This document shows, one piece after another, positions 3,001 to 64,000 of a stretch of DNA of 64,000 bases. The notes under the pieces are model-generated. The model was given only the letters and a program-made list of their open reading frames with translations. It was not told the DNA's origin and did no database searches. Within the stretch, counting starts at the first letter, position 1. Each line of letters starts with the position of its first letter. The DNA lies in the NCBI GenBank assembly GCA_050084515.1, contig CM114271.1:21452001-21516000 (forward strand), read 5' to 3'. The DNA is from Blasia pusilla (Eukaryota). Made by a program: the position numbers and the translations under genes.

Positions 3001-3185
3001 GTAGGCTATCTGAGATTGTGTATAGAGTGACGTAGCATTCCATCTGGTTACAATCATTTACTCTCAGCGTAGTTCTCACCTCTCCGTGAAGACGTAGTAC
3101 GTACCGACTACCGCGGCAACAGCGAATCTTCATGTGCAGAGAGATTGCAACACGCCTTTACATTCACATGTTTCAGTCATCTCCA

Positions 3186-3420
3186 GCCCGGACCGAAAGC
3201 CATAGATAGCCGCGGCCTTGCGTAGAAGGCCGCGTAGATTAGACCTTAGTCGCAGGCGGTTCGGCACGGGATTAGGGTCGGTAATACCGACGGCGGAGGA
3301 CGGACGGTTGGACGGGGTGCGGACGGATGGACGGACGGCTGGCTGGACGGACGGAGAGATGGATGGACGGATGAGCTCACGGATGGATGGATGGACGGAC
3401 GGCGGGGTGGAGCGGACGGA
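3186..3420 (+). repeat. Left TIR and subterminal GGAC-repeat of the MULE
   Basis: Inverted match to 15535-15766. Confidence 0.85.
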
Positions 3421-3459
3421 ACCCTCACCTCCGAACGCCAAACCCGAAACCCAATGTGG

Positions 3460-3790
3460 TGCGTTTTTCGGTCTGCTGCGTGTTTTCGGTCTGCTGCGTC
3501 TTTTCGGAATTGGTCCCAACGATCGACTTGAGGGCTTCGTCCCGGCCTGCCACAAATGCGCAAATCCGCCTTGAGAGCTTCGTTTCGGCCTGCCAGTCTG
3601 CTGCGTTTTTTCGGTCTGCTGCGTCTTTTTGGTTTGCTGCGGTTTTTCGGTCTGTTGTGTGCGCTATCACTTGAGGGCTTCGTCCCAGCCTGCCACAAAT
3701 CCGCCTTGAGAGCTTCGTTTCGGCCTGCCACAAATCCGCAAATCCGCCTTGAGAGCTTTCTTTATGCCACAAATCGCCTTCCGGGCCTAT
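3460..3790. repeat. Short degenerate tandem repeats (GGTCTGCTGCGTTTTTTC and GAGGGCTTCGTCCCGGCCTGCCACAAATCCGCCTT motifs)
   Basis: Both motifs recur several times by direct reading. Confidence 0.8.
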
Positions 3791-5479
3791 GAGGTTGGTG
3801 TTTCTCTTCTCTTCTCTTTTCTTCTCCTCTTTTCTTTGATCAGCCGCTCAGTCATTCAATCGAATCTCTGGACCCGAGCACCACCAACATTGACATCCGT
3901 TTATGAGGTTGGTGATTCTCTTCTCTTAGTACACTTAAGAATGTCAGTAGCCGAAGCAAACGGTGTTCTATGTCCTTAGGGAGTCACACCGTGAGCCATA
4001 GAAGTCACGGGCAATATGCATTACAGTCCGGAACTTTATTTGTGAGGAAGAGAAATGAAGCCACTGTGAGATCGAATTTGCAGAGTTTTCTGGGCATATT
4101 TGTAGACATTAGGAGAACGCCGAATGCATAGAAATGTGATTGTGGCAAATAAATACATGCCCCAATTTTCCAGACATCCCTTCCCGATGGTGGGCGGGTT
4201 AGCGGCTCCTATTGGCTTAAGGGTCAAGTGCAACATCGGTAGTCTCGGAAGGGTAGTATACATGCCCCTTACTTGTACTCTATGGAGCTCAAACACAGAA
4301 ACCTGCCCAACTAGTCCTGTTGGATTCGATTGCGACAAACTTGTACAGGAGATGTGAACCCTTTCATGAAGATCCTTGTTACAATAATCCCGGGACTGCA
4401 TCATGACCAACCGTAATATTGCAGACGTCTAGACCTAAAGTTACTTAGAAACCGTAAACAGAAGCAGGACTGGAGAAACTTCGTTTCTTCGATTTTCTCT
4501 GTACTTCACGACTTCGCTTTGCACATAATCTTGACCCTAGAAGCCGGCGTCTCCGATCCCCAACCCCGCTCGATCAAGTCCCATGTCAACCACGTCTAGA
4601 TCTTGAAACAACAGGGGCCGGGCATCTGCAAGACCAGTTTGGCAAGCGTGAAACCCCATGTTTGGAGAAGGAGTAACACTCGGTAACACAGGAGGGGAGC
4701 AACACCCATCACCTCAGCCGTTGTCGTCACGACGATGACGGTCATAAATCTCGAGCATGATAGAGGGAATGTGCAGCGGTCTACGAAAGACCGAGTTTCA
4801 GTGACAAGGTTGAACTAAATTAAGGAGCTCGTTCTCTTCTCTTCTCTTCGCTTCTCTCCTCTTTCTGACTTTATTTGACAATTACCAAGTTGGTGTTTCT
4901 GTATTTTTCCAAGCGTTCATACAGCTCCATCGTGTTGCCTATTGTACAATGTGTGGCAACTTTTCAGGCAATGGAAATATATTTGAATCTATTTGCAGTA
5001 TACAAATTTTGTTTGAACTGGTTACTGAACATGCGGTTGTGAGGGATATATCGACTTAATCGTCTTTGAATGAATACTTTCAGTTGCGAAGATTTGTAGG
5101 GCGCATGATGCAAATCTTGGTTCTGCTGCCCTGTCATGAATTATTTTAGTGAGAAGAAAACCTGAACGTTTTCTGTCTTTGTTCTCTTCCAGGCGTCCAT
5201 ACAAAACCATCGTGTCGCCTATTGTACATCGTGTGGAACTTCTTTGAGCACAGACACAAGGTAAATAGTCATTCAGACTCCGTCTCATTATATGTTTACC
5301 AGTGGGCTGACCTTCTATCTCTGCTGCACAAATACAAGGCATATTTAGAGGATATCTCCACTAAGATCCAACTGACCAGAGAAAGCTAAATATTTGATGT
5401 AGGTATGAATATGTCTTCCTGATGTAGAAATATGGCTCACACAGATCAAGTTCCTTACCAGCATTTGCAATTCTTGCAG

Positions 5480-8400
5480 GGGAGCACATAAGCGTTCAAA
5501 TTCCTTGCTGCTATCAAATCTGCCACTACTATCGACCTAGGTCTTGAATGTGAATTTGCCTCAGTTGTAGGGCTTGTAGAGTAGTACGTATCGCATCATG
5601 TCCAATATCGTCCAGTTTTGTGATGCAAATGGGATGCACACTTTGAATATGCTAGTTAGGAAACCAGAAAATGTTACACATTTCATGTCTGGCAATCAAG
5701 GGTCTAGATATATACCATTGCATAGAACAGGCAGCTAGGGATGCTGGGTACCACGTGGCTTTCAGCTAGGGATGCGTGGGTACCACGTGCTGGGAATCTG
5801 ATGGAGGCATCACAACAGAACATGGTATCAAAATTAGTATGCACTATCCGATTAAAGCGGAGGTTAAATGCCACAGAGGATGTAGATGATAGCAACAACG
5901 TCCCTTGGGTGATTGGGGTCACTCCTAAAACGGTTTACCTTATCGACCAGACTGACATTGATGATCAACTACATTTGGAAAAGGACCAACATGTGGATTT
6001 ATCCGAAGTTATGAGCTCATTGGCCATTCTGAATTTAGCTCGGGGTAAGCTCTTAACACATAGTGCATGTGTGTTCATCCTCTTTCGTCATACAAGTTGT
6101 GTTCCTTGGTAGACCGAATTCAACTAAGTGACTAATGAGGTGTGCTTGACTCATCTTCTTGTAGGTGGAGGACAACCTTTTGCATCTTGAAATCCTAGGG
6201 AATGTTTAGGAGATTTAGGGTTTGTGTTTACTTTTTGAGGCCTAGTTCTTGTCGTAAACCATATACCGAAGTACCTACATATAGATCTTCAATATAGGGA
6301 TAGTATTCATGTAAGCTGAGAATCTCGAACAAGCCCCACGTCTACCTTTTAGACGACGGGTTTGGGCGGTGATGGGCAAGCCAGTCGTCTATCTTTTAGA
6401 CGACGGGTTTGGGCGGTGATGGGCAAGTCAGTCGTCTACCTTTTAGACGACTTGTTTGGGCGGTGATGGGCAAGCCTCACGTCTACCTTGTAGACGACTT
6501 GAGTTGGGCGGTGATGGGCGAGCCTCACGTCTACCTTGTAGACGACTTGAGCTGGGCGGTCATGGGCAAGCCTCACGTCTACCTTGCAGACGACTTGAGC
6601 TTGGCGGTCATAAGCTTCTCTTTCTACTTTTTAGATGGTTTGTTTGGGCGGTCATGGGCACGTCCTAGGAATACTGGTATTCCGAATGGCGAATTTTCAT
6701 TGCCCTGCGTCTAGCTCTTCCTTTTCTATTTAGTTTCATATTTACTAGTTAACACATAAGCCTAAACCTGATATGCGTATGCTGTCATCCGGGAAAATAA
6801 AATTCCACCTGAGAAATGCGTGCTCATCTCGTGCCTGTTGTCTTTCAATGCCCAAGGTAACTATTTCATGCTTACTTGTATGGTTGATAATGTTGTTACA
6901 TAGGGCCCATTTTACAAGGGAGACGTGGAGAAAGAGCCCTCCTACCTTGAGCCTCTAAACATGTTTGCTGCGTTTATGGGCAAAAGCCCACCCCCATCTC
7001 AAAAGCAGGCTTACCAAACATCACTGTGGAGGGATCCAGTGGAGTGGGTCCACTATTGCTACAGCGAGGAGCACAAGCAATACGTTTGCTTGTGCTCCAA
7101 GTGCATTGAATTTTTTCGCACGCCGGAAGCTTTCAACTCCCACCTTGCTTCACAGTGGCTTAGGCCAGTGCCTGGAACACCTCGTATCACAGGGAAGAAG
7201 AAGTCAGATGTTGATATTCAAGGCATAGAAGATGACGATGAAGACGAGGGTAAGAGTGGGTCCACTATGTGATTGAATCCTATTGAGATTGCTCATGTAA
7301 TTGCCTGGTTTTGCTTAAGGGTCAGAATCTCTGTCATACTGCAGATTTCCATGCAGGGACTCACACACACGCTTCTATGCAGGGACTCACACACATCCTT
7401 CTGCTGCCAATCTCAGACTTAGAGGCACAGTCTTGCAACGTTGGGCTAACCGAAAGCGGCAGAAGAAGAATGCTATCCTCAACAAAGCCAAAGACCATGC
7501 CACAAGGGCTGCCGGGCCGTATGTCCCCATGCCTGCATTTACTGATCTGCTGATTGCATTTGAAGCTCATCGTACTGCAGATTTCCAGCAAACCTCATGG
7601 GCATGCTTAGCCAAGGTGGAGGAGTTTGAGAAGGCCAGGGAGGAATTGGAGAGTGCTTTGGTGCGCCCTACGACCATAGTGAGGGGATGGATAGAGGCCG
7701 GTCATAAGCTTCTCCCTTCCCACGTACCTGCTGATAGGGTACATCGTGCGACATACATTGGAGATGTCGAGCTGCGTTCCACCACTTATCTGCTGTGTGG
7801 ATGATGGATAGGCAGGAACCTTTTCGATGGGATGCAGGTTTAGAGACTAGAAAACAACAGGTTGAGCAGTCTCTTGCAGTATTAGATGGGATGCGCAGAG
7901 CGCATCGGCATGCCTGGTTCATCAGCGAGCAATACTTTGTCCCTCGATTCAAGTATAATTACCGGGTTTGGAAAGAAGCCAAAAAACCGTTTATAGTAGC
8001 AAAAATGAGAGAGAAAGTGACATGTATATATGTGGATGGACTTGGCTGCAGCCATGGTGATGCTGTGTCCAGGGTACAAATCTTGTCCTTTCATTCTAGT
8101 CCTTGAATTATCCCATCTCCATTGAAACTAGGCACAGTTTGTACATTCTATGCATGTTTTCTACTCTTGTGCATTTCATATGATTTGTCATTTGGTGAAC
8201 ATGTGTGCAGGGAGGTGTGGATATGGAGATTGTGGACTCCAGTGACTCTGACTCTGTAGATGATGGTCATAGATCTCCAGATTCGGCAGGAACACACAGG
8301 ATGGAGGAGAGGTTGGGGCGGCCTGACGTAGAGCCTATATTTTCAGATGAGCCAATTGAGCTGGACATTGTGCACCCACGGAATCTAAGACCCACCTCTA

Positions 8401-8837
8401 GATCCGGTAGGCCCACCACGGAGAGATCTTCTAGGGTCACGCGTGATACAAGGAAATCTCCTCGCCTTCATCCTGTAGAGTCCAGTGCACGCCAAGCATC
8501 CCGTGGATACCGTAAGTCGCCTAGCCCGGACCAAGTGGTGGTGCAGGGTGAGCCTATTGTGAGATCCAAGTATCCTATGGGGAGAACTAAAGAGTCCTTG
8601 TAAAGGAGGAGAAGGATCATGCTGGCCGAAATGAAGAAGAAGACGGGCTTAGAGACGGGATTGCAGGTACACAACATTCCTATACTAAACCCTTTGAGAT
8701 ATTTATTTTTTCTGGATAAGTTGTACTTGCCTCACACATTCATGTGGCTTTTCAGCAGGCGCCGACGGGAGATGGACACCCTATAGCGGTTGCTGTGAAC
8801 TTGGACAATGATGGCGTGCTTAGCGGAAGTGACCAGG
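5480..8837 (+). pseudogene. Multi-exon accessory gene of unknown function inside the MULE, convergent with the transposase; contains a degenerate C2H2-like zinc finger
   Basis: In-phase GT-AG joins link exons 6904-7249, 7383-8073 (one frameshift near 7795-7804), 8211-8666 (in-frame TAA at 8601) and ~8756-8837. A probable upstream exon lies at ~5480-6044. Motif CSKCIEFFRTPEAFNSHL fits C-x2-C-x3-F-x5-hydrophobic-x2-H. Confidence 0.55.
6330..6662. repeat. ~7 x 47-48 bp tandem repeat; most units carry a CGTCTA-loop-TAGACG hairpin
   Basis: GGGCGGT(G/C)ATGGGC recurs at 6364, 6411, 6458, 6506, 6554, (6602) and 6646. Confidence 0.9.
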
Positions 8838-9748
8838 TTGTGTTCCATCCCTTTCTCACATCTTTTAGGGTAAAGTAGATTGATGATCTTCAAAATCTGC
8901 AACGTACAATGCTGATTTAGGGCTGAAACACTTCGGGTGGTAATTAGGTGGCTGGAGCTGGACACATACAGCGGGAGGTAGCGGTGCCAAGTGAAGACCA
9001 GCATGCTGATGTGGATGGCGGAGACTTTCATTCTACTCCGCTGCCCCTTTTCTCGACTCCGGCATTGGATGCGTTAGAAATGGAAACTTTGTCCACAAGT
9101 GGAGCTACTGCGGGGCGACATTAGAGTTGCAACTGCATCATGTAATGACATGAACCAAGATAATATGCCTCTAAAACTTCTTTCACAATTTTGATAGACT
9201 ATAGACATATTTTGAACCTACTCAAGAGTGTAAATTTACATGTGTTGGTACATTGTTTGATAGATAGCCGGCTGTTGGAAATTGTGCAGATTCTGTATAA
9301 AATGTTGACTATCTTTGAGGATGAACCTATGGCCTTCGCATGCTGATGTGCCATGGAATGCTTTGAATTTATAGATGGACGGCGGCTGCTTCAGGTTTTG
9401 CAGTTTTGCATTGAGCACCCCAACAGAGGCTATCGGTCGGACAATTTTGTTCCTCATCTACGGCGGCTGCTAGAGTTTGTCAGTTTTGCAGACCTTCCTT
9501 GAGCACTACAACACGGAGCTACAACAGGTTAGACAACCTTATTTCTGTAACTTCAATGACGGTGTCCTTGTATTTATGCAATTTGGCATGTCGGCATGTC
9601 CTAAAGGTGAAGTTGTGTGCATGTATTTATGCAATTTGGCATGTTGGCATGTCCTAAAGGTGAAGTTGTTGATTTGTTCTGTGCAGATGCGGGATGTATG
9701 ATGGCAATGAGGGAAGGATGGAAACGTTCTATGCTAGTTCCCCCCCCC

Positions 9749-10498
9749 GGTTGCCCCAGGGTTAGATGTAACTTAAAGAAATCCCACATGTACTCTGAAA
9801 TTGCCTTTTTTATGAAAAGTCGAAGTGCATACTGTGATATGTGTTGTTCCCATTGTACGTTCGACATTTTGTATGGCTTATCGCATTCAACCAAGTCCTG
9901 CAAGTCTTGTCGACAATCTGTTTCTGTCGACACTCTTTTTCTGTATGCTCATCCCTTTCCTCCCAAGTTGCCCCAGGGTTAGATGTAACTTAAAGAAATC
10001 CCACATGTACTCTGAAATTGCCTTTTTTATGAAAAGTCGAAGTGCATACTATGATGTGTTGTTCCCATTGTGCGTTCGACATTTTGTATGGCTTATCGCA
10101 TTCAACCAAGTCCTGCAAGTCTCGACAACTTTATCGACACTACACTCTTTTCGTATGCTAATCCCTTTCCTCCCAGGTTGCCCCAGGGTTAGATGTAACT
10201 TAAAGAAATCCCACATGTACTCTGAAATTGCCTTTTTTATGAAAAGTCGAAGTGCATACTGTGATATGTGTTGTTCCCATTGTGCGTTCGACATTTTGTA
10301 TGGCTTATCGCATTCAACTTTCGACACTCCTGTATGCTAATCCCTTTCCTCCCAGGTTGCCCCAAGGTTAGATGTAACTTAAAGAAATCCCACATGTACT
10401 CTGCAATTGCCTTTTTTATGAAAAGTCGAAGTGCATACTGTGATATGTGTTGTTCCCAATGTGCGTTCGACATTTTGTATGGCTTATCGCATTCAACC
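9749..10498. repeat. Four-copy tandem repeat (periods ~180-220 bp) between the convergent MULE genes
   Basis: GTTGCCCCA(G/A)GGTTAGATGTAACTTAAAGAAATCCCACATGTACTCTG... starts at ~9749, 9967, 10176 and 10355. Confidence 0.95.
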
Positions 10499-11324
10499 AA
10501 CCGATACCACTCCTGTCCACAATCTAAATCTGTATGTTTGGTTTGTTACTAATGGTCTTCTATACTTGTTGAGGTTCTAAACATAGCCTAGTACATATCC
10601 ATGGACTTGGAACACTGTTTGTGAGGTGTTCAACAAAATGAACATTGGAGCTACGATGTTCATCTTGCATATGCTTTGTTTCACTACATATCACCGCATA
10701 CGCGTATTATAGACAAGTCGTTGTTGCACTTCAACATTATTTAACGGCTAATCGTTTCACATGATTATTTTAGCGACGAATTTAGGATCAACTAAGTTAG
10801 CTGTGGTAGGGTCGACGCCGCTAAAACTTTACGAAGAGGGACATGGCTCAAGGGTAGGGTTGGGAGCGTGTCCAAAGCGTTTTTTTCTAGTCAAGCCTAT
10901 CTTCTTTAGTTACAACTACTTTAGAGGAATCTCTATATGAAGAAAGTGGCGGTGTTTTGCCTCTACGGCGTGGAACACGACGCAATATAGCTGCGCCCCC
11001 CTGTACGTGGTTAAGCCTCCAATGTGGAATGGTGCGCGCGCGCGGTATGCCTGCCCGACCTGGTTAAGAAGTGCATAAGTGAGATCACGGGATCCGAATG
11101 GGATCTTGTCAGAGCTGCCATCGCGGTAGAAACCAAACTTGATTCAAAAGGTTTTATTCAAGAATGCACAACATAATAAGGGATGAACACATGTTTTCAA
11201 GTGTTCGATTTAAAAACATGCAGAACACTGTATATCATGTGTTCCCGTGTAACACCTCCTACTTTGTGTTACAAGGACGTTTCAACGCTTTACTTCACAG
11301 TATTAAAGGACATTCAATTGGCTT

Positions 11325-18700: not shown

Positions 18701-20086
18701 TGATACAAGCGTGCTTATAATTCACTCACATGAGTTGCATCAAGAAATAGCAAGGTTTATGGAAGGAATAAATGGATATCAATCTTTGGAGAAGAAATTG
18801 GATGGGCACAATTTTGAGGCGGAGAAGGTAGAATATCCTATCACGGCACGAGTATAACCACAATACAAGGTTCTAGTTCGAAAAGTGAAACTGATAGCTA
18901 CTCAACTACCAAAAGGACTTTGGGATACAAATCCCCAAAGAGATCCACACCCATCTCTATATTTAGGAAAGTCCTCTTGAGCCACTCCTTCTGGCCCTCG
19001 AGCTAATTATCATTTTGATAGCTTGGGGATAATTTTGAGATCTTTGCTTGTAAGTTTATATCAATTTTTAGTACGTTGGAAACATCTTCTCTCAAGCTTT
19101 TCAACGCCACCAAGTAAAGGCTGCAAGTGGGTATGGATGGAAAAAAAAGTCTCCAATATGCACATCCATTTGCTAATAATTGGGCCTCTAGTGATGGAAT
19201 CTCCCACATTGTGAGCCCGCCACAAAATCCCATATGGGTGTATGGCAGGGTTTACTTACGTCATTGTGGTGGCCTTTTGGGCTATCCACAATGACGTAAG
19301 TAACTCACCAATTTCAATAACATTTAGAGAGATAATATCAACAACAACTAAAGAGACATGACTTTAACAAAGTGCGTTTCTTATGTCAACTTCTTGCACA
19401 ATCTGAGCTTGTTTCAAAAGCCTATTAGCTTGGGCATCTCGCAAATTTATGGAGACCTATCGCCTACGATAAAGAATCGCAATAGATAAGGATAACTCAT
19501 TTCTCGATTTGGGATGATAAGGGAAATCCGTATCGGATGAGTCAAACCTCACGTCTATAGCCCCATATACCTTTATGGCCATGGAGATGAACCGATGTCC
19601 ATTTTGAATTCGACTATAGAGATAGGTCTTCTTCATTGCCATCACTCCTTGTTGCAATCCCCCTTTTGTCACCACCAAGGCTTGCATAGCCTCCCGTGTA
19701 GGATCTGTCACTACAACATCTGCCACCATCACCGTAGCCACTCGCGTCATATAAAGATCAACATGAATTAGGGAATCCCACATATGCATGAAGTAGTGCC
19801 TCTCTATCTATATACACATTGAAGCCATTCTTATGAGCAATATTGAATATGATATCCGCATAACATCATGAGTGGAAATTTTCTCACCCCCAACTAGACA
19901 TCATGCTAAATGCACACCAAGTGGATCTAGACTTCAACAACATTCATCATGTGTTGAACCAACCACTGATGGTCGGGGGAGGCCTAGCTCGCTTAAAATT
20001 ACTTCCTTTGGATTCTCCGACTTCCACACGCACACTTAAGCACTCAACAAGTGTGGGGTAATCCGAAAGACCTCAAATGAAGGAGA

Positions 20087-20191
20087 CTAGTATAAGCCCG
20101 TGCGATGCACATGTTTACATTATCTCCTATTGATTGAGAATGTGAATAATTGCATTGGTTGAAAGTGCCAAGTGGAGAGAATTTAGGAATG
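20087..20191 (-). mobile_element. Helitron 3' end (hairpin + CTAG), apparently interrupted by the Gypsy insertion
   Basis: Minus strand reads ...GTGCATCGCACGGGCTTATACTAG|T, the typical Helitron 3' hairpin-CTAG followed by T; 5' end not located. Confidence 0.55.
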
Positions 20192-20674
20192 TGTCACATC
20201 TGAGTAGCCGATAGGCCGAGATCTATCGTGGATAGGGCGTAGGAGCCAACGGACTATCTTGAGTGTACCTTTGTCCCACGGTGTCAGATGAGGTTGAGGA
20301 TAGGTCCATTGTGTCAGGAACGTCGTTTCTGACAACTTTCATGTTGAGGTCTTTTATAGCCGGATGACTTGTTGACCAGGTCAACCGCCCCTGGTAACCT
20401 GTGCGCACAGGTTACCAAGGGGAGGGCTATTTTTAGGGGAAGAGCCTTTTGGCTCTTCCCAACCCTATATAAGAGAGGAAGATGGCTTTCCTAAGCCATC
20501 TTTCTCATGTTGGGCCGTTGGAGCACCTCCCTTGTATGTGTGTGAGCTAGGACTAGGGTGCTATCGTCCGGATTCCTTGATAGCATAGGGTGGACGAGGC
20601 TCAATATGCCGATGTAGATTGAGGAGTGGAGTTTTAGGCCGGGTGTGCCGTTTTCACTACTCTTTATTTTTACA
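20192..20674 (+). repeat. Repeat A1 (5' LTR-like; TG...CA; TATA box at 20466-20472)
   Basis: Near-identical to 29271-29752 and homologous to 63211-63676. Confidence 0.93.
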
Positions 20675-20685
20675 TGAGAAAGATG
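20672..20685 (+). promoter_or_regulatory. Putative self-priming primer-binding site
   Basis: ACATGAGAAAGATG is the exact reverse complement of CATCTTTCTCATGT (20497-20510), ~30 nt downstream of the TATA start. No TGG tRNA-type PBS is present. The pairing is conserved in the 63211 copy. Confidence 0.75.
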
Positions 20686-21869
20686 TCACGGGGCTGGTGG
20701 AAATTTGTTGTTTGTAGGTAGGCAAGCGAGTTGCCTTGGTCGGGAGCCCCAAGAGACGCGTGTGTTGCGGGTGTTTTTCATTTTTCTATTCGGAAGGCCG
20801 TGGGCGGAAGCGCTGTCCATTTTTCTCAGATTTTGCTGGTGCGGATTGATGGGGAACAGCAGCCGAGTGTAGTGTGTGGTGGAGCGTCGGGTGTACGCGA
20901 GTGAGGGTGTCGAGAGAGAGAAGAAATGAGAGTCAGGGCGCAGACAGACGGGCGGCGACGGGAGCTAACGGGTGGCAATAGACGGGCGGCGGATGGCGGA
21001 CAGCGGACAGCGGGTGGCAACGGCGGATGGTGGGTGGCAACAGCGGACGGCGGGCAGCCATGGCGCGGCCCCCCTTCCCCCCGGGCATTTATTACACCGC
21101 CCCGCCCCCTCCAACGTGGTAGGATTGGAGCGGCCGTGGTTGGTAGGACGGACGAGGTTAATCCGGCGAACATGAGTTGAGATTTTCCGGACATGATTGG
21201 GAGCCAACCAGGGTGAGTCACGTTACATGCCACGCGTGGGGATAGATAGAGAGGTTTGCGTGACATGATGTTTTGGGGCGCGACAGGGCGTTACGAGAGT
21301 TGACGATGGAGGGGCAGTGTGCATGATGCCAACGGGTTGTCCGCATCTGTTGACGGGAGGATCGACGTGTTGGTCGAGGAGAGTGTTGTGTTGCGGAGAT
21401 TGTCATATCATATGGAGGAGTGCATGTTGACGGTGCAGCAGGTTGGAGGGCGTGATCAGGTTACCCATTCGAGTCCCTTTTCCCGCACTTGTCGTGTGTG
21501 ATTGAGAGTGCTGGGTATCGGGTAGTAGGTGGTGCTAGGTGGGTGCAGTGATGGTGACGAGTGTAGATTCTTTTCATGTGTAGCATTTTGGTGGATATAC
21601 GGCGGTTGCCGAGTAGGGATCACGTGTATGACCCGAGAGAGTTTCGCTAGGTTAATTGAGTCAGTTGGGAGGCTCATGGTGAGCCCGAGTGTTGAGCGTG
21701 CGTGAAGCCGGGTATGTCATCACGGGATTGATGTTAGCATAGGTGAGCTAGTAAGGCGTGTGGGAGACTCTCAGTGAGTCTGAGTGCTTGAGCGGGTGAG
21801 ACAGGGTTTGTCATCACTGCGTTCTTCTAGGGTTCGGAAGAACGGGGTAGTGCGAGCAGTAGTAGTGGT

Positions 21870-23918
21870 GTGACACGGAGTGGAGTGAGATACCGAGGGG
21901 TTACCAGTGAGGAGCTCCCTCGACATCCATCCGTGACTGGATCTTCATCACTGGACACTGGGTCTGGTGACGAGATCACAGACAGAGACAGTAGTACTTG
22001 GCAAGAGATGGACGACATGGGGCATCGGGGCATGCGTCGTTTCTCGGGTGTAGTGGGCACTATCGACTTAGATGATTTTATCCAGGAGTTCGACACATGG
22101 TGCGACTTCCAGGAGATACAAACCCCGACACGGTTCAACCCTTTCATGGCATGGAAGGGGTTGTTTCAGCACTTGGAGGGTCCTCCGATGGATGACTACA
22201 TGGAGTTTCGATCACTATATTCAGAAGAGATCGATGCCTGGAGGATGTATTGGGCTCCAGGGTATGTGTCCACTAGTGGTCGCGAGGCTTATGATGGGAT
22301 TGTGAGAAAAGAGAGACCCACACCATCAGCCCGGAGACTAGATGGAGAGGAGGGCAGTGAGACTCGCGATGTGGCAGAGACCTCTGGTGGTAGAGGGCCA
22401 CCTAGCTTCAGCCCCACAGTAGAGTTCTTTCGACAGTTGGGGAAGAGCTACCAGGGCGTACGCACCGATAAGCTGAAGAGTCTACAGGATTTTCAACGAC
22501 GATCGGGTGAGAGTCTGAGAGAGGCATTCACACGCATGAGAAGGCTGATCATTGCTACGTTTGGAGTGACTGAGGCAAAGTCAGTCTAGTATTGGTACGG
22601 GGTTCTGGACCGAGAACTACGGAGGAGAGTCCGAGATGCGGTGCTGATTCACACAGCAAAGCCCACATTGAAGGTGGTCTTTGAGTTGTCTCGAGCGTAT
22701 TGAGCTCAACATGAGTGAGGAGCGGTAGTGACCGCTGATTTTCTTGAGAGTCGACGGGTCCCTGGCGATGGTGACCCAACAGTGTGCCAACGAGCACCCG
22801 TACCACGGAGCGGGCGGTGTGCCTAGAGAGAGCGGGCGGGTACCGTGAGCCTATGAGACAACGACCCGTACCTACATATGTTGCCCAAAGACCAGGACCG
22901 ATGTGGTCTTGTTGGGCGTGTGGAGGGGCCCATAGGCGAGAGAGGCGCCCACAAAGCATGGGAGAGGACCACGGCGCCTCAAATTGCTCAGGAGCCACAA
23001 AGGATGGCCCCACCACAGCACCAGTGTGACCATCGCCACAGATATGGTCACACTAGGGATAGATGTTTTGACCTTCGCCGAGGGGCACGTCCAGAGGTAG
23101 GCCGAGGGCCTGGGGGCGGTCGTCCTAGAGGAGGTCGGGGAGTTCTTCCTGGACGTGATGGTAGAGGACCACCACCAACCAGAGGAGATGGATCAGGAGC
23201 ACCAGAGCCGGCACTTCTCTCACGCATCGATCAGTTGGAGCAGAGGATTGCTACCATGACGATGATGCAGCTTAGGCAAGGCACGGAGCTGCGAGCAGCT
23301 AGTGTGACTCCAGCTTCTACCTCTTACCCTGACCTGGGTGAGGATCTCGCCATTATGGGATTTATGTGTAGTGCAGCCCAGGTTGAGGCACCTGCAGTGG
23401 TGACTCGGGGTGCTGCGAGAGGCACCGAGCCATCGAGAGGTGGAGTTGAGATTGACCCACCAGAGGGGACCGATGGGCGGCAGGCCAGGGTTCCACAGTC
23501 GTTCATATTGTTGGAGGCACTACACACACCATCGATGGTGCCTCGACAACCAGAGGTGCCTACAGTTCAGACACCTACGTCGACGTCACGAGGAGTTGGA
23601 GTGACAACTCCTATGCCGGCTCGAGTGGAGTCAGTGTCGACCATGGTGTTGGAGGTGGCCACTAGAGTGAGTCAGACTCCGCTATTTTCCGCCATAGAGT
23701 TGGCGATGTTGGGAGTTGGACCAGCTGAGGTGTTCCGGTTGGCCACCACCATGTGTGAGCGTGGAGAGATGACTGCTTCTTGTTCAGAGGTAGTTGAGGA
23801 GGTGGTGGACTTGCCCTCAGAGCTGGTGTTTGGGACGTTCCCCATAGAGTCATGGCATGCGGCGGCGGCGGTTGATAGATATGCCCACTCGACCATAGCC
23901 ATAGAGCGGCGGTGGTGA
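21870..23918 (+). pseudogene. Gypsy gag region (retrotransposon gag domain plus degenerate zinc knuckles)
   Basis: RFSGVVGTIDLDDFIQEFDTWC; FQRRSGESLREAFTRMRRLI; SCWACGGAH and QCDHRHRYGHTRDRC knuckle relics; interrupted by stops and frameshifts. Confidence 0.75.
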
Positions 23919-23989
23919 CACATGGAGTAGTGTTACTGGATAATCGAGCTTGAGTATTTCGCTTGGTTAGTCCGACGAGGACAGTATAC

Positions 23990-24330
23990 CACCTGCAACG
24001 CGTCCTACTTGATTCGGGAGCGCAACCCTTGATGTTAGGGAAGGCGGCGTGTTTAGCGTTGGGGTTACGGAAGGCCGACATTGAGCCTTGTCCCTTCCAG
24101 ATACAGACCTCGATTGGGGGCGTATCACCCACTCAGTAAATGACTCGACAGGAGATTGTTGTCAGAGTCCAGCCAGAGCAAGCGACGGATAGTGCTATGG
24201 TGCGCACACGTGCGATAACGACACCAGCTGAGTCGTATGATGTGTTGGTGGGGAGTACAGTGTTATATCCCCTAGGATTCATCCTTGACTTCTGGGAGGA
24301 GACCGTTGCTTATCGGCCAGGATGGCGGTC
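23990..24330 (+). pseudogene. Retropepsin aspartic protease domain
   Basis: VLLDSGAQPLMLG at 24002-24040 and YDVLVGS C-terminal motif. Confidence 0.85.
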
Positions 24331-24727
24331 AAGTGACGGTCGAATGAGTCAGTTACCCGTGCAGTTTGCGGGACGAGGTGGTCGATCATGAGGCGAGTCT
24401 ATGACCACGTTGGCAGCTTTCATAGGTAGTGTTAGCTGGCCAGGAGAGTTGGTGGAGGGGAATGCACATGCGGAGGATGTCCCAGTAGCGGATAGTCCCA
24501 TGGAGAGACAAGCCATGGCGGGTGTCGCTTCCCATGTTGGTGAGGCCTCTTCACCATTGTGGGGTACGACTCGAGAGCTACAGAGGAGTGCCGACGACCT
24601 CGTGAGGCAGGCGTGGAGTCATGTTTTTATCCCACAGCCGCGAGAGTCACGTGGCGATCAGGCTCTTGGAGTGGAGACGATGACCCCGCTAGATACCACA
24701 CCTGTTGTGTGGCAGTGCCGAAAGGAG

Positions 24728-25680
24728 GATGTTAGGGTGTTAGATCTCTTTGGAGGGATAAGCACCGGATTGGTTGCACTATTGCAGGCAGGCATAAGGG
24801 TGCATCAGTACGTTTATGTGGAGAGATATGAGACCGCGCGGCGAGTATCATTACGTCACATGGCGAGATTGGTCCAGAGGTATCTTGAGTTGTTGCGGTA
24901 TCGTAACGGGGATATCAAAGATACGCTACCCGCCGACATCTCTTTGGTGGGGGCGTAGGATGGATAGAGTTGGCACCATTCATTTGGTGATTGCTGGATG
25001 GCCATGTCAGGGTCATTCATCAACTGGCCGAGGATTTGGATTGCAGGATCCGAGGTCAGGGATGTTTTGGGAGATGCTGCGAGTATTACAACACTTGCAG
25101 GAGAGTCAGATATGTTCTCCAGCGTACATTTTGGAGAGCGTGCCGTTGTTGGGAGACACTCGTGCACGTGTGATGACGAGTGTACATCAGGTGAGGTCCT
25201 GGTTGGGACCTGTGGTGTTGTTAGATGCAGCGAGAGTTGGGTCACGTGCCCATCGTCCACGATTGTGATGGACGAACCTGATACCATCGAGGTCTTGAGT
25301 CGAGCAGCATACGGTGGAGTCTAGAGAGCACCACATCTCATAGTGGATGCTATTTTGGGCTCAGGGCGTCAATCTAAGGTGGTGACACGGGATGATAGAC
25401 CACCGTTGGCCATGGCCAATAGGGTGGGGGAGTTGAGGGCAGCCTTACCTACGTTGGTGAGCTTCCCAGCATCCCATGCCTTTTGTCAGGGAGGGCCAGG
25501 CATGATTTGGGATGAGGTGACCGGAGCATTGGAGGAGCCTACAGCACATGAGCGCGAGCGCGCCATGGGGTTCACTACCGGTACTACGGCGGTGCTAGGG
25601 ATGACTGAGGCATCACGGAGATAGGTGTTGGGGCAGGCAATGGACCTCAACTGTCTCACATGGATAGTCAGCCTAGGTAT
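24728..25680 (+). pseudogene. DNMT3-like DNA cytosine-5 methyltransferase domain within pol
   Basis: Motif I VRVLDLFGGISTGL, II YVYVE, IV AGWPCQGHS (PC at 25002-25007), V DPRSGMFWEM, VI YILESVP, VII/VIII DAARVGSRAHRPRL*WTNL, IX ERERAMGF and X VLGQAMD, all in canonical order. Confidence 0.92.
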
Positions 25681-26099
25681 GGCTGAGCAGAGACGGATGC
25701 GAGTGTCATCCATGCCGTCACGTCCACGAGTTGGACCATTGCCTACCGGGTCTGTACAGGCATTGGCTGGGGGCAAGACGAGGAGAGATAGGCACCCATG
25801 GACTTCTTGGGACGTCGTTCAAGCAGAGAGTGTGAAGGCGGCTAGAGTAGCACATGTTCATTTTTCGGATGTGGAGCATGGTATAGGAGGTCAGAGTGGA
25901 GTGGCTGTTGCGGAGGTGGCTAGGGTTGCTACATAGCATCCAAAGCCAGAGGTTGCGTCCTCTCCGAGTGAGGTCACGATGGAGACTTGGGAGCTTGTGA
26001 TAGGTCTCAAGTTGATAGGAGGAGAGCGACGGCGAGTTCATAGGTTTCTGAGGGGGCATGTCACTTGTTTTGCCTTCAGTATGAGAGACTTGGGTACGC

Positions 26100-27420
26100 T
26101 GAAGGGTCCCGGGATACGGATTGAGTTGGCTAGTGATACGCCGATCTTTCGTCAACCCTACAGGTATTTTGATATGGAGCGAGCCTTGATTCAGAGCAAA
26201 AGTCAAGACTTGTTGAGGCGGGACTTGTGGAGTTATCACATGGGGAGTATGCATCTGCCACAGTCATGCCGGCGAAGAAGGATATGTATGGCAATTGGAC
26301 GGATAGGCGGATGTGTGGAGATTACCGTCCTATCAACCGACAGACGAGGTCAGATCGGTGTGCCATGCCTACTCCTGAGGAGATCTTTGATGCGGTAGGG
26401 CATGCAAAGATCTTTAGTACTTTAGATCTCCGTGTTGGCTATCATCAGCTTCCTATCAGGTTGGAGGACAGGGAGAAGAAACTGACGTGCAGGGGATAGA
26501 TCGGTTCGGGAGAGATTGCTTGTATCAGTGGCGGTTCTTACCATTTGGGTTGAAGAACGCGCCTGTAGAGTTTTAGAGAGTGATGGATAGGATTCTAGCT
26601 GGCTTGGATTTTGTACGATGTTACATAGATGATATTCTTATCTTCAATTCCACGGTTGAGGAGCATGAGCGACACTTGGAGGTGTTTCGGAGATTACAGT
26701 TACATGGACTGAAGTTACATCCAGGCAAGTGCAGATTCTTTCGGGAGCAGATTGAGTACTTGGGACACACCATATACCCGAGTGGGTTAGGCGTTTAGCA
26801 GACGAAGGTAGAGGCTATTGCGTAGATTCCACGCCCTACAGATGTGAGTCGAGTCCGAGCATTTCTTGGACTGGCGAACTTCTATCGACGGTATGTCAAG
26901 GGTTTTAGTGCGATCGCAAAGTCTTTGACCTTGTTGACGAGACTTGATCAGGTGTGGTTGTGGGGAGATGATCAGGAGCGAGCATTTCAGGAGCTCAAGG
27001 ACAGGTTGACGTCCTCACCCATTTTACAGAGACCGGTTAGGGGTCAACCATTCCAGTTACATACCGATTGGAGCATGTTGGGTCTACGAGCAATGCTTAC
27101 TCAGAGGGATGACGAGGAGAGGGAGTTTGTTGTGGCTTACGCGAGCCGATTGAACAACATTGTAGAGGCGAAGTACAGCTCCTACGAGGGAGAGTGCTTG
27201 GCTGCAGTGTGGGCCGTGGCACATTTTAGGTGTTATTTATTCGGCAACCCTTTCACACTTATCAGTGATCATCAGCCATTGAGGTGGTTGATGGAGTCCG
27301 ACAAGCTTACGGGAAAGCTTGCCATGTGGGCTCTATTACCACATGAGTATGAGTTTGAGGTGGTTCATAGGCCAGGTCAGTTGAACCAGGATGCGGATGG
27401 GTTGAGTCGTAACCCATGTC
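26100..27420 (+). pseudogene. Gypsy reverse transcriptase and RNase H
   Basis: RMCGDYRPIN, STLDLRVGYHQL, LPFGLKNAP, YIDD (26622), FLGLANFYRRYV, LHTDWS, YEGECLAAVWA, SDHQPL, DADGLSR. Confidence 0.97.
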
Positions 27421-27799
27421 CGAGTCAGAGAGACGACACAGGAGCTCGATGGCACGGAGAGAGTGATGAGGAGATGGTGCCCGGTTGGCATGCATCTACC
27501 TATCTTTGTTGGTTGACTATGGCATGTCAGCCACAGGTGATGACTCCAGTGGTGGGGTTGGATGATGAGTCTTTGGATCCGGAGGTTAGTGAGGAGGCGA
27601 CATGTGGTCGTGATATCCATGACGACGTGGAGGTTGTGGAGTTCTTGCGCATTGGCGTCATTGCAAGTACAGTGAGTGCTAGGGAGCGGGATCGGATCCT
27701 ACAGAGAGCCAAGAGGTTCAAGTGGGAGGGGACTCACATTTTGCGGGTATGGGGAGATGGTAGGATACGAGTGATACCTCATTCTTCCCAGCGAGCATG

Positions 27800-28706
27800 T
27801 GTAGTGCAACATGCCCATGAGGAGTTGGGACATTTCGGAGTAAAGCGTACTTACAGCTTACTCCAGGTTCAGTATTGGTGGCACGGCATGCATACTCGGG
27901 TACAACAGTTTGTGGCCACACGTATGGTATGTGATAGAGTGCGAGCATCCTTCAATGCTCCCACTCCGCAGTTACATCCTTTGCCGATTATGGGTTTAGG
28001 TTATCGGTGGAGTTTAGACTTTGCGGGACCTTTGCCATTGACAGGGCGTCATCATAGGTACGTGTTGGTCATGGGGGAGCATTTCTCCAAGTGGATAGAG
28101 TTGGTGGCACTACCAGACAAGGCGAGCGAGGGAACACCTTATGCGTTCCTAGATCGTGTGCTTAGTCACTTTGGTGCACTGGCGGAGGTGTTGACTCACA
28201 AGGGTACCAAGTTCAGGGGAGAGTTTTAGGCCTTGTGTGATCAGGCGCTGATAGATCACCGCACCACGTCCAGAGATCATCCTGAGGCGGATGGGTTGGC
28301 GGAGAGAGTGGTACAGACGGTGAAGAGAGGATCGCGCAAGTATGGCTTGCAGCGGGGACAGTTGAGGGAGTGGGACCTACAGTTGTTATGGTTGGCTATG
28401 GGTTATCGCTTTAGTCGGCAGGCATCCTTGGCGTCATTTTCATCATACTTTTTGCTCTTTGGGAGAGAGCCAGATTTACTTGCAGCAATTTGACGTGACA
28501 TGGCGGAGGTGTTAGATCTTGATGATCCAGATGTGTGGGTACAAGCATGTTCTCAGAGGGCAGAAGTTTTTCGTAGAGTTATGCCTATGGCCTTTGAGAA
28601 CTTAGCTATTGCCCAACATAGAGATACATTGAGGTACGCGACCATTCGTGGAGGAGGTTATCGTCCAGGGATTATGAGGTTTCATCCTGGAGATTACGTG
28701 TATTAA
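27800..28706 (+). pseudogene. Retroviral-type DDE integrase (HHCC-like zinc region + rve core)
   Basis: HAHEELGHFG...WW; WSLDFAGPLP; EHFSKWIE; HRTTSRDHPEADGLAERVVQTVK. Confidence 0.95.
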
Positions 28707-28910
28707 CAGCACGCGGCACCCACGACGCTAGATGTCACTATAGGGCGCACGATCCTACGTGTGTACGAGGTATTACCGATTGGAGTCCTCATGTTGGAGG
28801 GACGGGATGGTATGGTTTGGAAGGATCATATGCACAATTGTGCGCCATATCATCTTCCGAACGTAGATGGGACGGTGGATCCGAGCTTGGCAGTGGTACC
28901 TGCAGGCTTG

Positions 28911-29054
28911 AGGTGTATGTTGTGCGGATCTGCGAGGGATGCAGCCACCATGTTGGTATGTGATGGTTGTTCTCGAGGGTGGCATATGTCATGTCTGACC
29001 TCCCCTCTTGATGTGGTTCCCACAGGACGATGGATGTGTCCGAGATGTGTATAG
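28911..29054 (+). pseudogene. PHD finger at the C-terminus of pol
   Basis: RCMLCGSARDAATMLVCDGCSRGWHMSCLTSPLDVVPTGRWMCPRC, an intact C4HC3 pattern with terminal W-x-C-x2-C. Confidence 0.93.
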
Positions 29055-29121
29055 GGTAGTAGGTCATCTTAGAGAGATGTGATATTTTCTATCTGGAGTT
29101 GGGGGGATCCAACTGCCAGCT

Positions 29122-29131
29122 AGGGGGACGG
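29122..29131 (+). promoter_or_regulatory. Polypurine-tract-like sequence preceding repeat B1
   Basis: AGGGGGACGG immediately before TTGTGTG; no comparable tract precedes A2. Confidence 0.6.
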
Positions 29132-29268
29132 TTGTGTGATCACCATATATATGTATGAGTTGATTTTTGTACATTTGTGGATCAACCCGTGTGTGGGGAA
29201 GATCGATGTTGTGTGGTGTAGATGTGACCAGCGATGTATGTTGTGTAGCGATATGTATGCGCATGACA
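29131..29268 (+). repeat. Repeat B1 (138 bp)
   Basis: Direct repeat of 29753-29890, about 8 substitutions by manual comparison. Confidence 0.93.
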
Positions 29269-29270
29269 GT

Positions 29271-29752
29271 TGTCACATCTGAGTAGCCGATAGGCCGAGA
29301 TCTATCGTGGATAGGGCGTAGGAGCCAACGGACTATCTTGAGTGTACCTTTGTCCCACTGTGTCAGATGAGGTTGAGGATAGGTCCATTGTGTCAGGAAC
29401 GTCGTTTCTGACAACTTTCATGTTGAGGTCTTTTACTGCCGGATGACTTGTTGACCAGGTCAACCGCCCCAGTAACTGTCTGTGTCTTGAAGAGTTACCA
29501 AGGGAGGGCTATTTTTAGGGAAGAGCCTTTTGGCTCTTCCCAACCCTATATAAGAGAGGAAGATGGCTTTCCTAAGCCATCTTTCTCATGTTGGGCCGTT
29601 GGAGCACCTCCCTTGTATGTGTGTGAGCTAGGACTAGGGTGATATCGTCCGGATTCCTTGATAGCACAGGGTGGACGAGGCTCGATATGCCGATGTAGAT
29701 TGAGGAGTGGAGTTTTAGGCCGGGTGTGCCATTTTTACTAGTCTTTATTTTT
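29271..29752 (+). repeat. Repeat A2
   Basis: Direct repeat of 20192-20671; lacks the terminal ACA and runs straight into B2. Confidence 0.93.
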
Positions 29753-29890
29753 GTTGTGTAATCTCCATGTATATGTATGAGTTGATTTTTGTACATGTGT
29801 GGATCGACCCGTGTGTGGGGAAGATCGGTGTTGTGTGGTGTAGATGTGACCAGCGATGTATGTTGTGTAGCGATATGTATGCGAACGACA
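29753..29890 (+). repeat. Repeat B2, the right terminus of the element
   Basis: Ends GCGAACGACA, followed by the AATG TSD. Confidence 0.9.
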
Positions 29891-30829
29891 AATGAGAAGG
29901 AAGCAAAAAGAGAGTAGATTGATACACACCAATTTAATCCAAAAAATGAGGGAAAAACTGTATCCCAAAATACTACATCAAGATCCATGGTTCAAACAAA
30001 CACAAGAGATCATATTTTGTGCTTGATAAACCCCCTTAAGATGACCTAGGTAGAAAATGACGTTTACTTGTAGGGGCTATAAATACTTTGATTTCGGGAT
30101 GAGTTTTTTGAGTTTGGATTTTTAATGATATGATGTATAGCATGATAGTATTTACTAATAGTTTTGTTGGGAAAACCTTGTGTGATAGGTTTTATTCCAA
30201 AAAAACTTTAAATTAGGAGGATTCGACATAAAATAGTTGTTCCATTCTTAATTCTAGCTTAGACTCAACTTGTTTGACCCTCAAGATTTATTTATTTTTC
30301 CATTTAGGTCAAGAATTTTCAAAGTTCTTGGGATCTTGGACTTTCTCCTTTCGTGAGACTCACTGTGCTCATGGATCCCTAGACACAATTCCACACATTA
30401 CATTCTTTTTATGGAATGACCGTCATTTACAATTAAAACAAAGGATTCCTCTTACTTTTCTCAATCTTTTGGTATGTAATCCCCCAAAAATTACTCATTC
30501 ATCCCTTTATGTTAATCAATAGTGGGTAACTTTCACTTTCTCCACATACCCTCTTTTACGTATTTACAATTTTCTCGGTTAGTTTCTCCTCAAGTCTCCG
30601 ATTGGGGTGTGTTTGGTTTTGTTACAATTATCTTAGGGAGTTAGTTCTTTTCATATCATTTCTTCCTTATTTTTTGGTGCAGATATGTTTATTTCTCCCA
30701 CACATCTTTCTTATTTTTCAACATGTTACCTCATTCTTTTACCCTTGCAATCCTTATTAATAGTTGCTTGGCTTGGAGATGTCTTTTCCTACCTCCAATT
30801 ACTCCTCAATATCCATGAGTGATGGACTA

Positions 30830-30967
<138 letters not shown>

Positions 30968-63890: not shown

Positions 63891-64000
63891 GGAGTAGTGT
63901 CGTCATATAGCGGCAATGATGAGTGTAAAGGGGAAGGAGAGTTAGATCTTGCAGCTTTTGGGGGGGCTATTTAGTAAAAGAGCAACCAGGTTACAAGAAC

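Follow-up and report, generated by a model that had tools for sequence, protein, structure and literature searches.

A decayed DNMT3-like methyltransferase domain in a bryophyte family of Ty3/Gypsy retrotransposons

The element and its broken methyltransferase domain

We analyzed a 64,000-nucleotide stretch of DNA from Blasia pusilla (GenBank assembly GCA_050084515.1, contig CM114271.1, positions 21,452,001 to 21,516,000 of the forward strand), which we call the window and number from its first letter. We found that positions 20192 to 29890 of the plus strand hold a 9.7-kb retrotransposon of the Ty3/Gypsy type, and that this element carries a DNMT3-like cytosine-5 methyltransferase domain (here, the DNMT domain) between its protease and its reverse transcriptase (RT). 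The element lies in a GC-rich block at approximately 20.2 to 29.9 kb (GC content, 48 to 56%; GC skew, +0.17 to +0.28), flanked by DNA of 33 to 47% GC, and the plus strand of this block contains the remnants of a single long coding region. The order of the domains, protease, RT, RNase H, and a DDE integrase, is that of Ty3/Gypsy elements. A preliminary description, made from the sequence alone, had placed the protease motif DSG at 24011 and the RT motif YIDD at 26622 with a cytosine-5 methyltransferase between them. Both landmarks are exact, and the domain between them is complete and not permuted (Table 1).

The DNMT domain of the window copy lies in three pieces. The first (24692 to 24955, frame 2) holds motifs I to III, with motif I reading LDLFGGISTGL (FGG at 24749). 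The second (24957 to 25265, frame 0) contains GWPCQG, ILESV, and GSRAHRPRL, with the Cys codon of PCQ at 25005 to 25007 and ESV at 25134 to 25142. The third (25325 to 25720, frame 2) holds motifs IX and X, with ERERAMGF and LGQAMDLNCL. We found that the middle piece, searched as window 24798 to 25268, matches Pfam family PF00145 above its threshold (E value, 2.4e-7; bit score, 31; cut-off, 22); searched alone, the outer pieces had no match in Pfam. In a local phmmer search, 218 proteins had a match to at least one piece, and in 87 of them all three pieces matched adjoining, collinear stretches. In protein P0015, for example, the pieces matched residues 869 to 956, 959 to 1060, and 1080 to 1206 (E values of 5e-26, 1e-48, and 3e-50, respectively). 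When the window copy was aligned with 20 relatives, motifs I, IV (with its Cys), VI, VIII, IX, and X followed each other in the canonical order in all of them.

The same relatives allowed us to locate the damage in the window copy. Frameshifts lie at approximately 24956 and 25287 to 25288, and in-frame stops lie at 25266 to 25268, 25322 to 25324, and 25622 to 25624, all of which are sense codons in the relatives. Motif VI reads ESV in the window and ENV in 20 of 20 aligned relatives. An intact frame with the catalytic ENV was found in intact relatives but not in the window copy. Because of the two frameshifts, the three premature stops, and the altered motif VI, we concluded that the window copy is dead and unable to make an enzyme, in agreement with the preliminary description, which had called it broken. 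Outside the DNMT domain, the element is also full of stops and frameshifts.

Table 1. Features of the element, with positions counted from the first letter of the window
Feature	Position	Strand	Evidence or remark
Left 4-bp target-site duplication, AATG	20188..20191		identical 4 bases at 29891-29894
Repeat A1, 5' long repeat, begins TGTCAC	20192..20671	+	95.5% identity over 485 aligned positions to 29271-29752
Gag-like region, decayed, in several frames	21867..23909	+	tblastn with L093 gag-protease open reading frame, 36% identity
Aspartic protease region	23954..24391	+	DSG at 24011-24019; collinear with L103 ORF1 protease
DNMT3-like cytosine-5 methyltransferase domain, broken	24692..25720	+	2 frameshifts, 3 stops, ESV in motif VI
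Conserved in-frame stop TAG ending ORF1; frame runs on into RT	25934..25936	+	homologous stop in 25/25 elements
Reverse transcriptase, frameshifted	26173..26798	+	YIDD at 26622; RVT_1 E 7.4e-13 on 26577-26798; tblastn with L103 ORF2
RNase H	26961..27347	+	RT_RNaseH_2 E 1e-29; RT_RNaseH E 1.8e-28
Integrase, H2C2 zinc domain and DDE core (core interrupted)	27783..28493	+	Integrase_H2C2 E 1.2e-12; rve E 2.1e-4
PHD finger, C-terminal end of integrase open reading frame	28914..29048	+	PF00628 E 2.6e-11; same place in L103
Polypurine-tract-like motif immediately 5' of B1	29118..29130	+	same motif before B1 in L106 and L091
Repeat B1, ends GACA, 2-base spacer then A2	29131..29268	+	94% identity to 29753-29890
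Repeat A2	29271..29752	+	copy of A1
Repeat B2, right end of inserted unit, ends GACA	29753..29890	+	copy of B1
Right 4-bp target-site duplication, AATG	29891..29894		matches left copy

Family distribution, affinity, and selection

We searched public proteins for relatives with the 107-residue middle piece of the DNMT domain as the query of a word-indexed search. This returned 60 proteins at an E value of 1e-3 or lower among 162 candidates, mostly 65 to 76% identical to the query. The named sources among the 60 were Marchantia polymorpha (15 proteins), Calypogeia fissa (2), Sphagnum troendelagicum (2), Marchantia paleacea (1), and Riccia sorocarpa (1). Further searches extended this list to Sphagnum tenellum, S. 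fallax, and S. jensenii, and annotated family proteins came from at least nine bryophyte species. In two Marchantia proteins (P0014 and P0032), the DNMT domain is followed by RT and RNase H within a single chain. An exhaustive HMMER search of 1.84 billion representative sequences gave 834 matches at an E value of 1e-3 or lower, 100 of them at 1e-10 or lower. Window-like RT, RNase H, or integrase stretches were also present in 41 of 209 collected proteins, and profile searches added Haematococcus, Chromochloris, and Mesostigma as sources. A public record assigns one family member of 455 residues, P0301, to a bacterial metagenome-assembled genome as a DNA cytosine methyltransferase; the DNA was probably binned there in error and would come from a retrotransposon of a plant or alga.

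A scan of metagenome contigs returned 80 loci (numbered with L), 31 of which were 62 to 79% identical to a bryophyte-type domain. Window positions 24692 to 29041 aligned to L084, L091, and L106 as a single block of approximately 4.4 kb at 69% nucleotide identity, running from the DNMT domain through the PHD finger. A scan of viral contigs likewise returned 80 loci, with partial matches at 24 to 53% identity and none near 62 to 79%, and was not used.

We found two layouts among the proteins. In the first, the DNMT domain precedes RT, as in the window; this layout occurs in bryophytes, three Closterium strains, and metagenome proteins. In the second, the order is RT, RNase H, DNMT, and integrase; it occurs in 12 proteins, including the "pol" of a Scenedesmus sp. 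(P0108, P0132, P0153, P0154, P0167, P0170, P0172, P0176, P0178, P0182, P0184, and P0191). In the chlorophytes Scenedesmus, Haematococcus, and Chromochloris, this second layout ends in a PHD finger, and it is also present in many long intact open reading frames (ORFs) on metagenome contigs (loci L113 to L150). No description of the second layout was found in the literature that we examined.

We built an unrooted maximum likelihood tree from 40 element-borne domains, without host enzymes. The window copy fell within an 11-member clade that also includes sequences from Marchantia, Calypogeia, and Sphagnum (Shimodaira-Hasegawa-like approximate likelihood ratio test, 100), and the Closterium and chlorophyte-layout sequences formed separate supported groups. 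These results show that the domain belongs to the whole family in liverworts and Sphagnum and has distant relatives in Closterium, Mesostigma, and chlorophytes.

The preliminary description had likened the domain to DNMT3 and set it apart from MET1, CMT, and the permuted DRM. We compared a profile of 26 domains from the family with all PDB chains, a search that ranks by sequence profile and not by phylogeny, and at that level the likeness to DNMT3 held. The 29 best distinct sequences were all DNMT3A, DNMT3B, or DNMT3C (E values, 3e-24 to 1.4e-18). Next came tobacco and Arabidopsis DRM (3e-11 to 6e-8), M.HhaI (3e-7), and DNMT2 (9e-4 to 0.4); neither DNMT1 nor a chromomethylase appeared at an E value of 1 or lower. 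In the alignment to DNMT3A, motif I, motifs IV to VIII, and motifs IX and X stood in matching order. Since this is the DNMT3A order, the element domain is not permuted as in DRM.

We also found that intact copies retain the SAM-binding and catalytic residues, as seen in these 26 sequences, which are 33 to 76% identical to the first of them. The motif IV Cys, the Trp that precedes it, the Glu of ENV, and four more positions are invariant in 26 of 26. At least 90% of the sequences have the Gly of motif I, the Gln that follows the Cys, the Asn of ENV, and the motif VIII His-Arg. In some distant relatives the Pro of the PC dipeptide is replaced, giving ECQ (Closterium, P0084, and P0091) and SCE or DCA (two chlorophyte-type proteins).

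One metagenome locus, L103, has an intact first ORF (ORF1), which matched PF00145 with 51.1 bits (E value, 1.8e-13). Only protease and DNMT were found in this ORF1 with Pfam, and no PWWP, ADD, or other reader domain. Judged by sequence, this supports the view that the family carries a bare DNMT3-type catalytic domain without PWWP or ADD. Cellular DNMT3 proteins, namely, animal DNMT3A, DNMT3B, and DNMT3C and the Physcomitrium DNMT3 (as far as the accessible text of PMC6453930 describes it), are the best catalytic match and share the motif order and a short target-recognition region. In contrast to them, the element ORF1 lacks PWWP and ADD, the sole reader-like domain is the PHD finger in the second ORF (ORF2), and the domain is coded by a mobile element rather than by a multiexon host gene.

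Six metagenome loci (L084, L093, L101, L102, L103, and L105) have an intact DNMT domain. We calculated the ratio of nonsynonymous to synonymous substitutions (dN/dS) for pairs of intact copies by the Nei-Gojobori method (NG86); more distant pairs were saturated. For the DNMT domain, dN/dS was 0.14 between L103 and L105 (dN, 0.036; dS, 0.253), 0.12 between L103 and L102 (dS, 1.37), 0.10 between L102 and L105, and 0.17 between L093 and L084 (dS, 1.76). For the same pairs, dN/dS was 0.20 in gag-protease and 0.06 to 0.35 in ORF2. The window pieces compared with L084 gave 0.15, with dS saturated. Because the values for the domain lie at 0.10 to 0.17, we concluded that the DNMT domain is not evolving neutrally but is under purifying selection of about the same strength as in the other parts of the element.

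Reading frames, repeats, and surroundings of the element

The intact copy at L103 shows how the coding region is divided. Its ORF1 of 1,369 residues comprises a gag-like part, the aspartic protease (residues 708 to 763), and the DNMT domain (approximately 929 to 1260) and ends in TAG. In the same frame after this stop, ORF2 (1,047 residues) comprises RT, RNase H, the H2C2 domain of the integrase, the rve core, and the PHD finger. The Asp_protease_2 match in ORF1 (residues 708 to 757; E value, 2e-4) scored 22.4 bits, under the cut-off of 24.3 bits. Intact ORF1 products of relatives have 1,250 to 1,450 residues. The gag-protease ORF of L093 carries a zf-CCHC domain (E value, 1.2e-7), and the gag-like pieces of the window had no match in Pfam. 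The tblastn alignment of L103 ORF2 extends to window position 29048. The rve match of the window scored 21.9 bits, under its cut-off, because the ORF breaks at 28229.

An in-frame stop between DNMT and RT was present in 25 of 25 elements that have this region (the window and loci within L081 to L111; 19 TAG and 6 TAA), although the number of independent elements is below 25 because L104 and L106, as well as L097 and L098, are the same insertions sampled twice. The stop is followed by CAA in 21 of these elements and by CAG in 2; the window has CAT here, and L101 has another TAG. The Marchantia ORF1 models P0015, P0022, and P0002 end 68 to 70 residues past the domain, which matches the distance to the stop. 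We rejected the stops between protease and DNMT (window 24389 to 24391, L093, L105, and L101) as a signal; they lie at nonhomologous positions and are absent in L103, and we read them as decay. Taken together, these data show a family layout in which ORF1 is Gag (CCHC), protease, and DNMT, followed by a stop, and ORF2 is RT, RNase H, integrase (H2C2 and DDE), and PHD. The preliminary description had put the DNMT inside pol. It was right that the domain lies between protease and RT, but because ORF1 ends at the conserved stop behind the DNMT, the domain is, in intact relatives, the C-terminal part of ORF1 and is not embedded in a continuous pol.

The repeats of the element are arranged as A1...B1-A2-B2, with B1 directly before A2 and B2 directly after it, so the simple case of two long terminal repeats (LTRs) expected of a Ty3/Gypsy element is seen in its target duplication but not in its repeats, which are split. 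The divergence of the A pair and that of the B pair are alike (Kimura two-parameter distances of 0.056 and 0.061). The unit from A1 to B2 begins with TGTCA, ends with GACA, and has AATG on both sides. The same split layout is found in L106 (positions 1676 to 10797; 69% identical), with an AAGG duplication, and L097/L098 has an A-B right end and a CACA duplication. L092 (6320 to 11962) has only 11 bases at the A position, ends right after B1, and is flanked by ATGT. In all four elements with both ends, the 4-bp target duplications are perfect. L091 (6945 to 7049) also ends directly after B1 without A2-B2, and L092 is a shorter integrated form of the family. The boundary between B and A is a palindrome, TGACA-NN-TGTCA, and is a perfect 16-mer in L106 and L084. 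The B repeats of relatives were found with the low-complexity filter of BLAST switched off, as the filter masks them. An automatic search for split repeats in the 80 metagenome loci and the window recovered the complete arrangement in two cases, the window and L106; since most contigs end within the element, this search is silent on the algal lineages. No primer-binding site matching the usual tRNA end was recognized behind A1, where no dedicated search was made. No tyrosine recombinase was found; rve and Integrase_H2C2 are present instead, together with the 4-bp duplications.

As described in the accessible text of PMC4157794, PAT and Ngaro elements formally have the same repeat layout, in which A2 copies A1, B2 copies B1, and the internal pair lies 3' of the coding region. 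Those elements use a tyrosine recombinase, whereas the element described here has a DDE integrase, TG...CA-type ends, and 4-bp duplications. We speculate that the LTR of reverse transcription is B plus A, with the polypurine tract before B and the primer side after A, and that integration cuts the palindrome, opening either a two-LTR circle (giving A-int-B-A-B) or a one-LTR form (giving A-int-B, as in L091 and L092). A cut at TGACA-NN-TGTCA would yield split repeats with 4-bp duplications, that is, a DIRS-like layout produced by a DDE integrase.

The PHD finger at the end of the integrase ORF is widespread in the family: most long relatives, including the chlorophyte ones, list PF00628 in precomputed Pfam annotation. 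Its best relatives of solved structure are CHD4, PHF12, PHF21A, KDM5A/B (PHD1), KAT6A, DPF3, ATXR5, UHRF1, and AIRE. PHD fingers of these proteins bind histone H3 tails that are unmethylated at K4 or R2. Chromoviruses also carry a histone-tail reader at the integrase C terminus, presumably choosing insertion sites; in them, the reader is a chromodomain rather than a PHD finger, and a methyltransferase is lacking. PHD fingers in retrotransposons are known in general, according to the part of PMC6673714 available to us.

We also examined RNA and DNA reads. An index of sequencing runs listed no RNA run as carrying the window stretch. We mapped 6 to 12% of each of three raw-read RNA runs, which have the same species label as the best DNA runs, to positions 20000 to 30000. 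At 93% identity or more, we obtained 497, 514, and 536 reads per run, which is a low level of RNA. Between 26012 and 29017, the depth of first mates was 2.5 to 16.5 on the minus strand and 0 to 2.1 on the plus strand. Over the internal part of the element, first mates were approximately 10 times commoner on the minus strand, which corresponds to sense RNA in most stranded libraries. In the DNMT bins (24676 to 25677), the minus-mate depth was 0.3 to 4.0. Because only 13 to 15 reads per run were at least 99% alike, the transcripts come mainly from other family members and not from the window copy.

In DNA run X1, which has the same label, 125,135 contig pieces mapped to the element, and the family is therefore highly repeated in this run. 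Run X1 is not independent support, since it is possibly the window's own source. Its read depth over the DNMT bins is similar to that over the other parts of the element. Where X1 and the window differ, the window has A/T against G/C at 80 places and the reverse at 51, a bias that fits decay of the window copy by transitions. The coding strand is G-rich and C-poor (G, 0.33, and C, 0.20, in the window element, with similar values in L106, L103, and L093), and CpA is overrepresented in the same four (observed/expected, 1.4 to 1.7).

Several other features lie in the window. A second related element begins at 63213 to 64000 on the plus strand; its A-type repeat shares 79% identity with A1 and precedes the same leader sequence, and the element leaves the window at its end. 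A Ty1/Copia element with long open frames lies at 54243 to 58576 on the minus strand (Retrotran_gag_2, gag_pre-integrs, rve, and RVT_2, the last with an E value of 1.3e-56). A 579-residue ORF at 47361 to 49097 on the plus strand matches RVT_1 (E value, 2.7e-29) and, with more ORFs up to approximately 50833, has the look of a long interspersed nuclear element (LINE). An exon-like ORF at 61319 to 61651 on the plus strand has a TLDc domain (E value, 5e-9) and probably belongs to a host gene. A long CT/GA dinucleotide microsatellite lies just 3' of the element, at approximately 30835 to 30965.

Interpretation of a transposon-borne DNMT

Retrotransposons with DNMT domains were described by de Mendoza et al. 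in 2018 in Symbiodinium (DIRS and LINE elements) and in Klebsormidium nitens (KnitGypsy-Dnmt3), as given in the accessible text of PMC5890265. Like KnitGypsy-Dnmt3, the element described here is Gypsy type and has a nonpermuted Dnmt3-like domain in its polyprotein, under purifying selection (Ka/Ks below 0.2 in PMC5890265 and dN/dS of 0.10 to 0.17 here). The legend of Fig. 4c of that paper speaks of DIRS-structure repeats with Gypsy-like domains, which fits the A1...B1-A2-B2 arrangement. In contrast, the host of KnitGypsy-Dnmt3 is a charophyte alga, and the host here is a land plant with relatives of the element in liverworts and Sphagnum. The accessible text of PMC5890265 does not mention a stop after the DNMT, a PHD finger, or 4-bp duplications, which its figure or supplements may show. 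SymbioDIRS-Dnmt3 and SymbioLINE-Dnmt resemble the family in that a retrotransposon encodes the DNMT, but one is a tyrosine-recombinase DIRS element and the other a LINE, both have a dinoflagellate host, and the authors regard them as independent acquisitions (PMC5890265).

A 2026 preprint (bioRxiv 10.64898/2026.05.21.726589), in its accessible part, describes EpiLTRs/DAM-LTRs, which are also LTR retrotransposons with acquired DNA methyltransferase and chromatin-reader domains. Unlike the family described here, these encode an adenine methyltransferase; their DNMT, a sister of DNMT4, lies at the 3' end of pol. The preprint names the streptophyte Gypsy-DNMT3 as a separate, earlier-known case.

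The combination of a Dnmt3-like domain, a Gypsy-type coding region, and purifying selection is what characterizes Gypsy-DNMT3 elements, and we found it here. We concluded that, with a probability of about three in four, the feature in the window is best explained as the decayed DNMT domain of a bryophyte Ty3/Gypsy family that is the land-plant counterpart of KnitGypsy-Dnmt3. What is new is the presence in land plants. We also found no account, in the literature that we examined, of three structural features: a stop that follows the DNMT, an integrase with a PHD finger, and split repeats that come with target duplications. In the literature that we searched, no DNMT retrotransposon was described from any land plant, bryophytes included; subscription journals and supplements were outside its scope, and the supplements of PMC5890265 and PMC12344493 may list copies. 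The preliminary description, which named such elements from Symbiodinium and Klebsormidium but did not know them as a characterized feature of land-plant genomes, overstated the novelty, since the principle was published in 2018.

Several observations weigh against parts of this reading. No Klebsormidium sequence was among the matches listed or the named cluster members in the protein searches, and the kinship with KnitGypsy-Dnmt3 is therefore one of architecture and not of a tree. Most copies are broken; of the 32 close metagenome loci, only 6 have a single ORF spanning 85% or more of the match to the DNMT. In a yeast assay, the isolated KnitGypsy-Dnmt3 domain produced no methylation, a result that the authors consider inconclusive because human DNMT3B also failed (PMC5890265). 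The ratio of observed to expected CpG is 0.76 in the element and 0.74 and 0.52 in the flanks; as CpG in the element is not below that in the flanks, the window copy has no special signature of methylation decay. The conserved stop suggests a candidate programmed read-through site, with conservation itself as the argument and repeat samples reducing the count. The six bases after the stop are CARYYA in 4 of 25 elements and CAA CCC in 19 of 25. CARYYA is the read-through context of tobamoviruses.

Read-through of the stop would probably make ORF2; the DNMT would then be made at levels like those of Gag, and the element's own protease would release it. We lean slightly towards a working de novo cytosine-5 DNA methyltransferase in active copies. 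A more tentative step is that the enzyme may act on the new DNA of the element, on the DNA of the integration site, or on both, and that the PHD finger may steer insertion into silent chromatin. The preliminary description had proposed release of the enzyme in the particle and methylation of new cDNA or of the insertion site, which would be a reasonable function. More doubtful still is the joint proposal of one old green-plant Gypsy-DNMT3 lineage, spanning chlorophytes, streptophyte algae, and bryophytes, that would combine a DNMT3-type writer, made at Gag-like levels before a leaky stop, an integrase-borne reader of the unmethylated-H3K4 type, and an unusual mode of integration.

We weighed three alternatives to these proposals. 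The domain might be selected but noncatalytic, serving as a DNA-binding protein or scaffold, as DNMT3L does for DNMT3A, and perhaps recruiting or blocking host methylation. The yeast result with KnitGypsy-Dnmt3 would agree with this, although the authors' own control makes it inconclusive (PMC5890265). The replaced Pro of the PC dipeptide in some distant relatives also points this way. However, the 26 sequences show little or no variation at the catalytic Cys, the Glu of ENV, the motif VIII His-Arg, and the glycines of motif I. Dead paralogues of the DNMT3L kind lose exactly these residues, and we consider a noncatalytic role unlikely.

Methylation of RNA, in the manner of DNMT2, on the genomic RNA of the element or on its primer tRNA in the particle, is less likely still. 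The DNMT2 fold, which is the same, is able to act on RNA, and a DNMT made with Gag upstream of the stop would sit with the packaged RNA. The family profile nevertheless places DNMT3A, DNMT3B, and DNMT3C (E values, 1e-18 to 3e-24) well ahead of DNMT2, and, as reported in the accessible text of PMC5890265, the related SymbioDIRS-Dnmt3 domains methylate DNA de novo at CG in yeast. The capture of a single host DNMT3 fragment, a nested insertion, or an assembly chimera is refuted, with nothing found in its favor: the domain lies in the same place and in frame in at least nine bryophyte species, 31 close metagenome loci, and intact ORF1 products, with collinear relatives in Marchantia, Riccia, Calypogeia, and Sphagnum and more distant ones in algae, and DNA reads cover it as they do the rest of the element.

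A DNMT encoded by a transposon inverts the usual picture, in which methylation is a weapon of the host against transposons. The only streptophyte example in the literature that we searched is that of Klebsormidium, for which the enzyme assay was inconclusive. The family described here is abundant in liverworts and peat mosses, and intact ORF1 copies are annotated in Marchantia polymorpha, which moves the question to land plants. For annotation, it means that the "C-5 cytosine methyltransferase" models of bryophyte genomes and of metagenomes associated with mosses include dozens of retrotransposon ORFs, with a bacterial label on at least one. The conserved stop, the PHD finger, and the split repeats are concrete handles for experiments. 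Marchantia polymorpha is a model with genetics, methylomes, and transformation, and what a transposon gains from a DNMT can be addressed there. If the joint proposal is true, the role of transposon-borne DNA methylation would be directly testable in this tractable plant.

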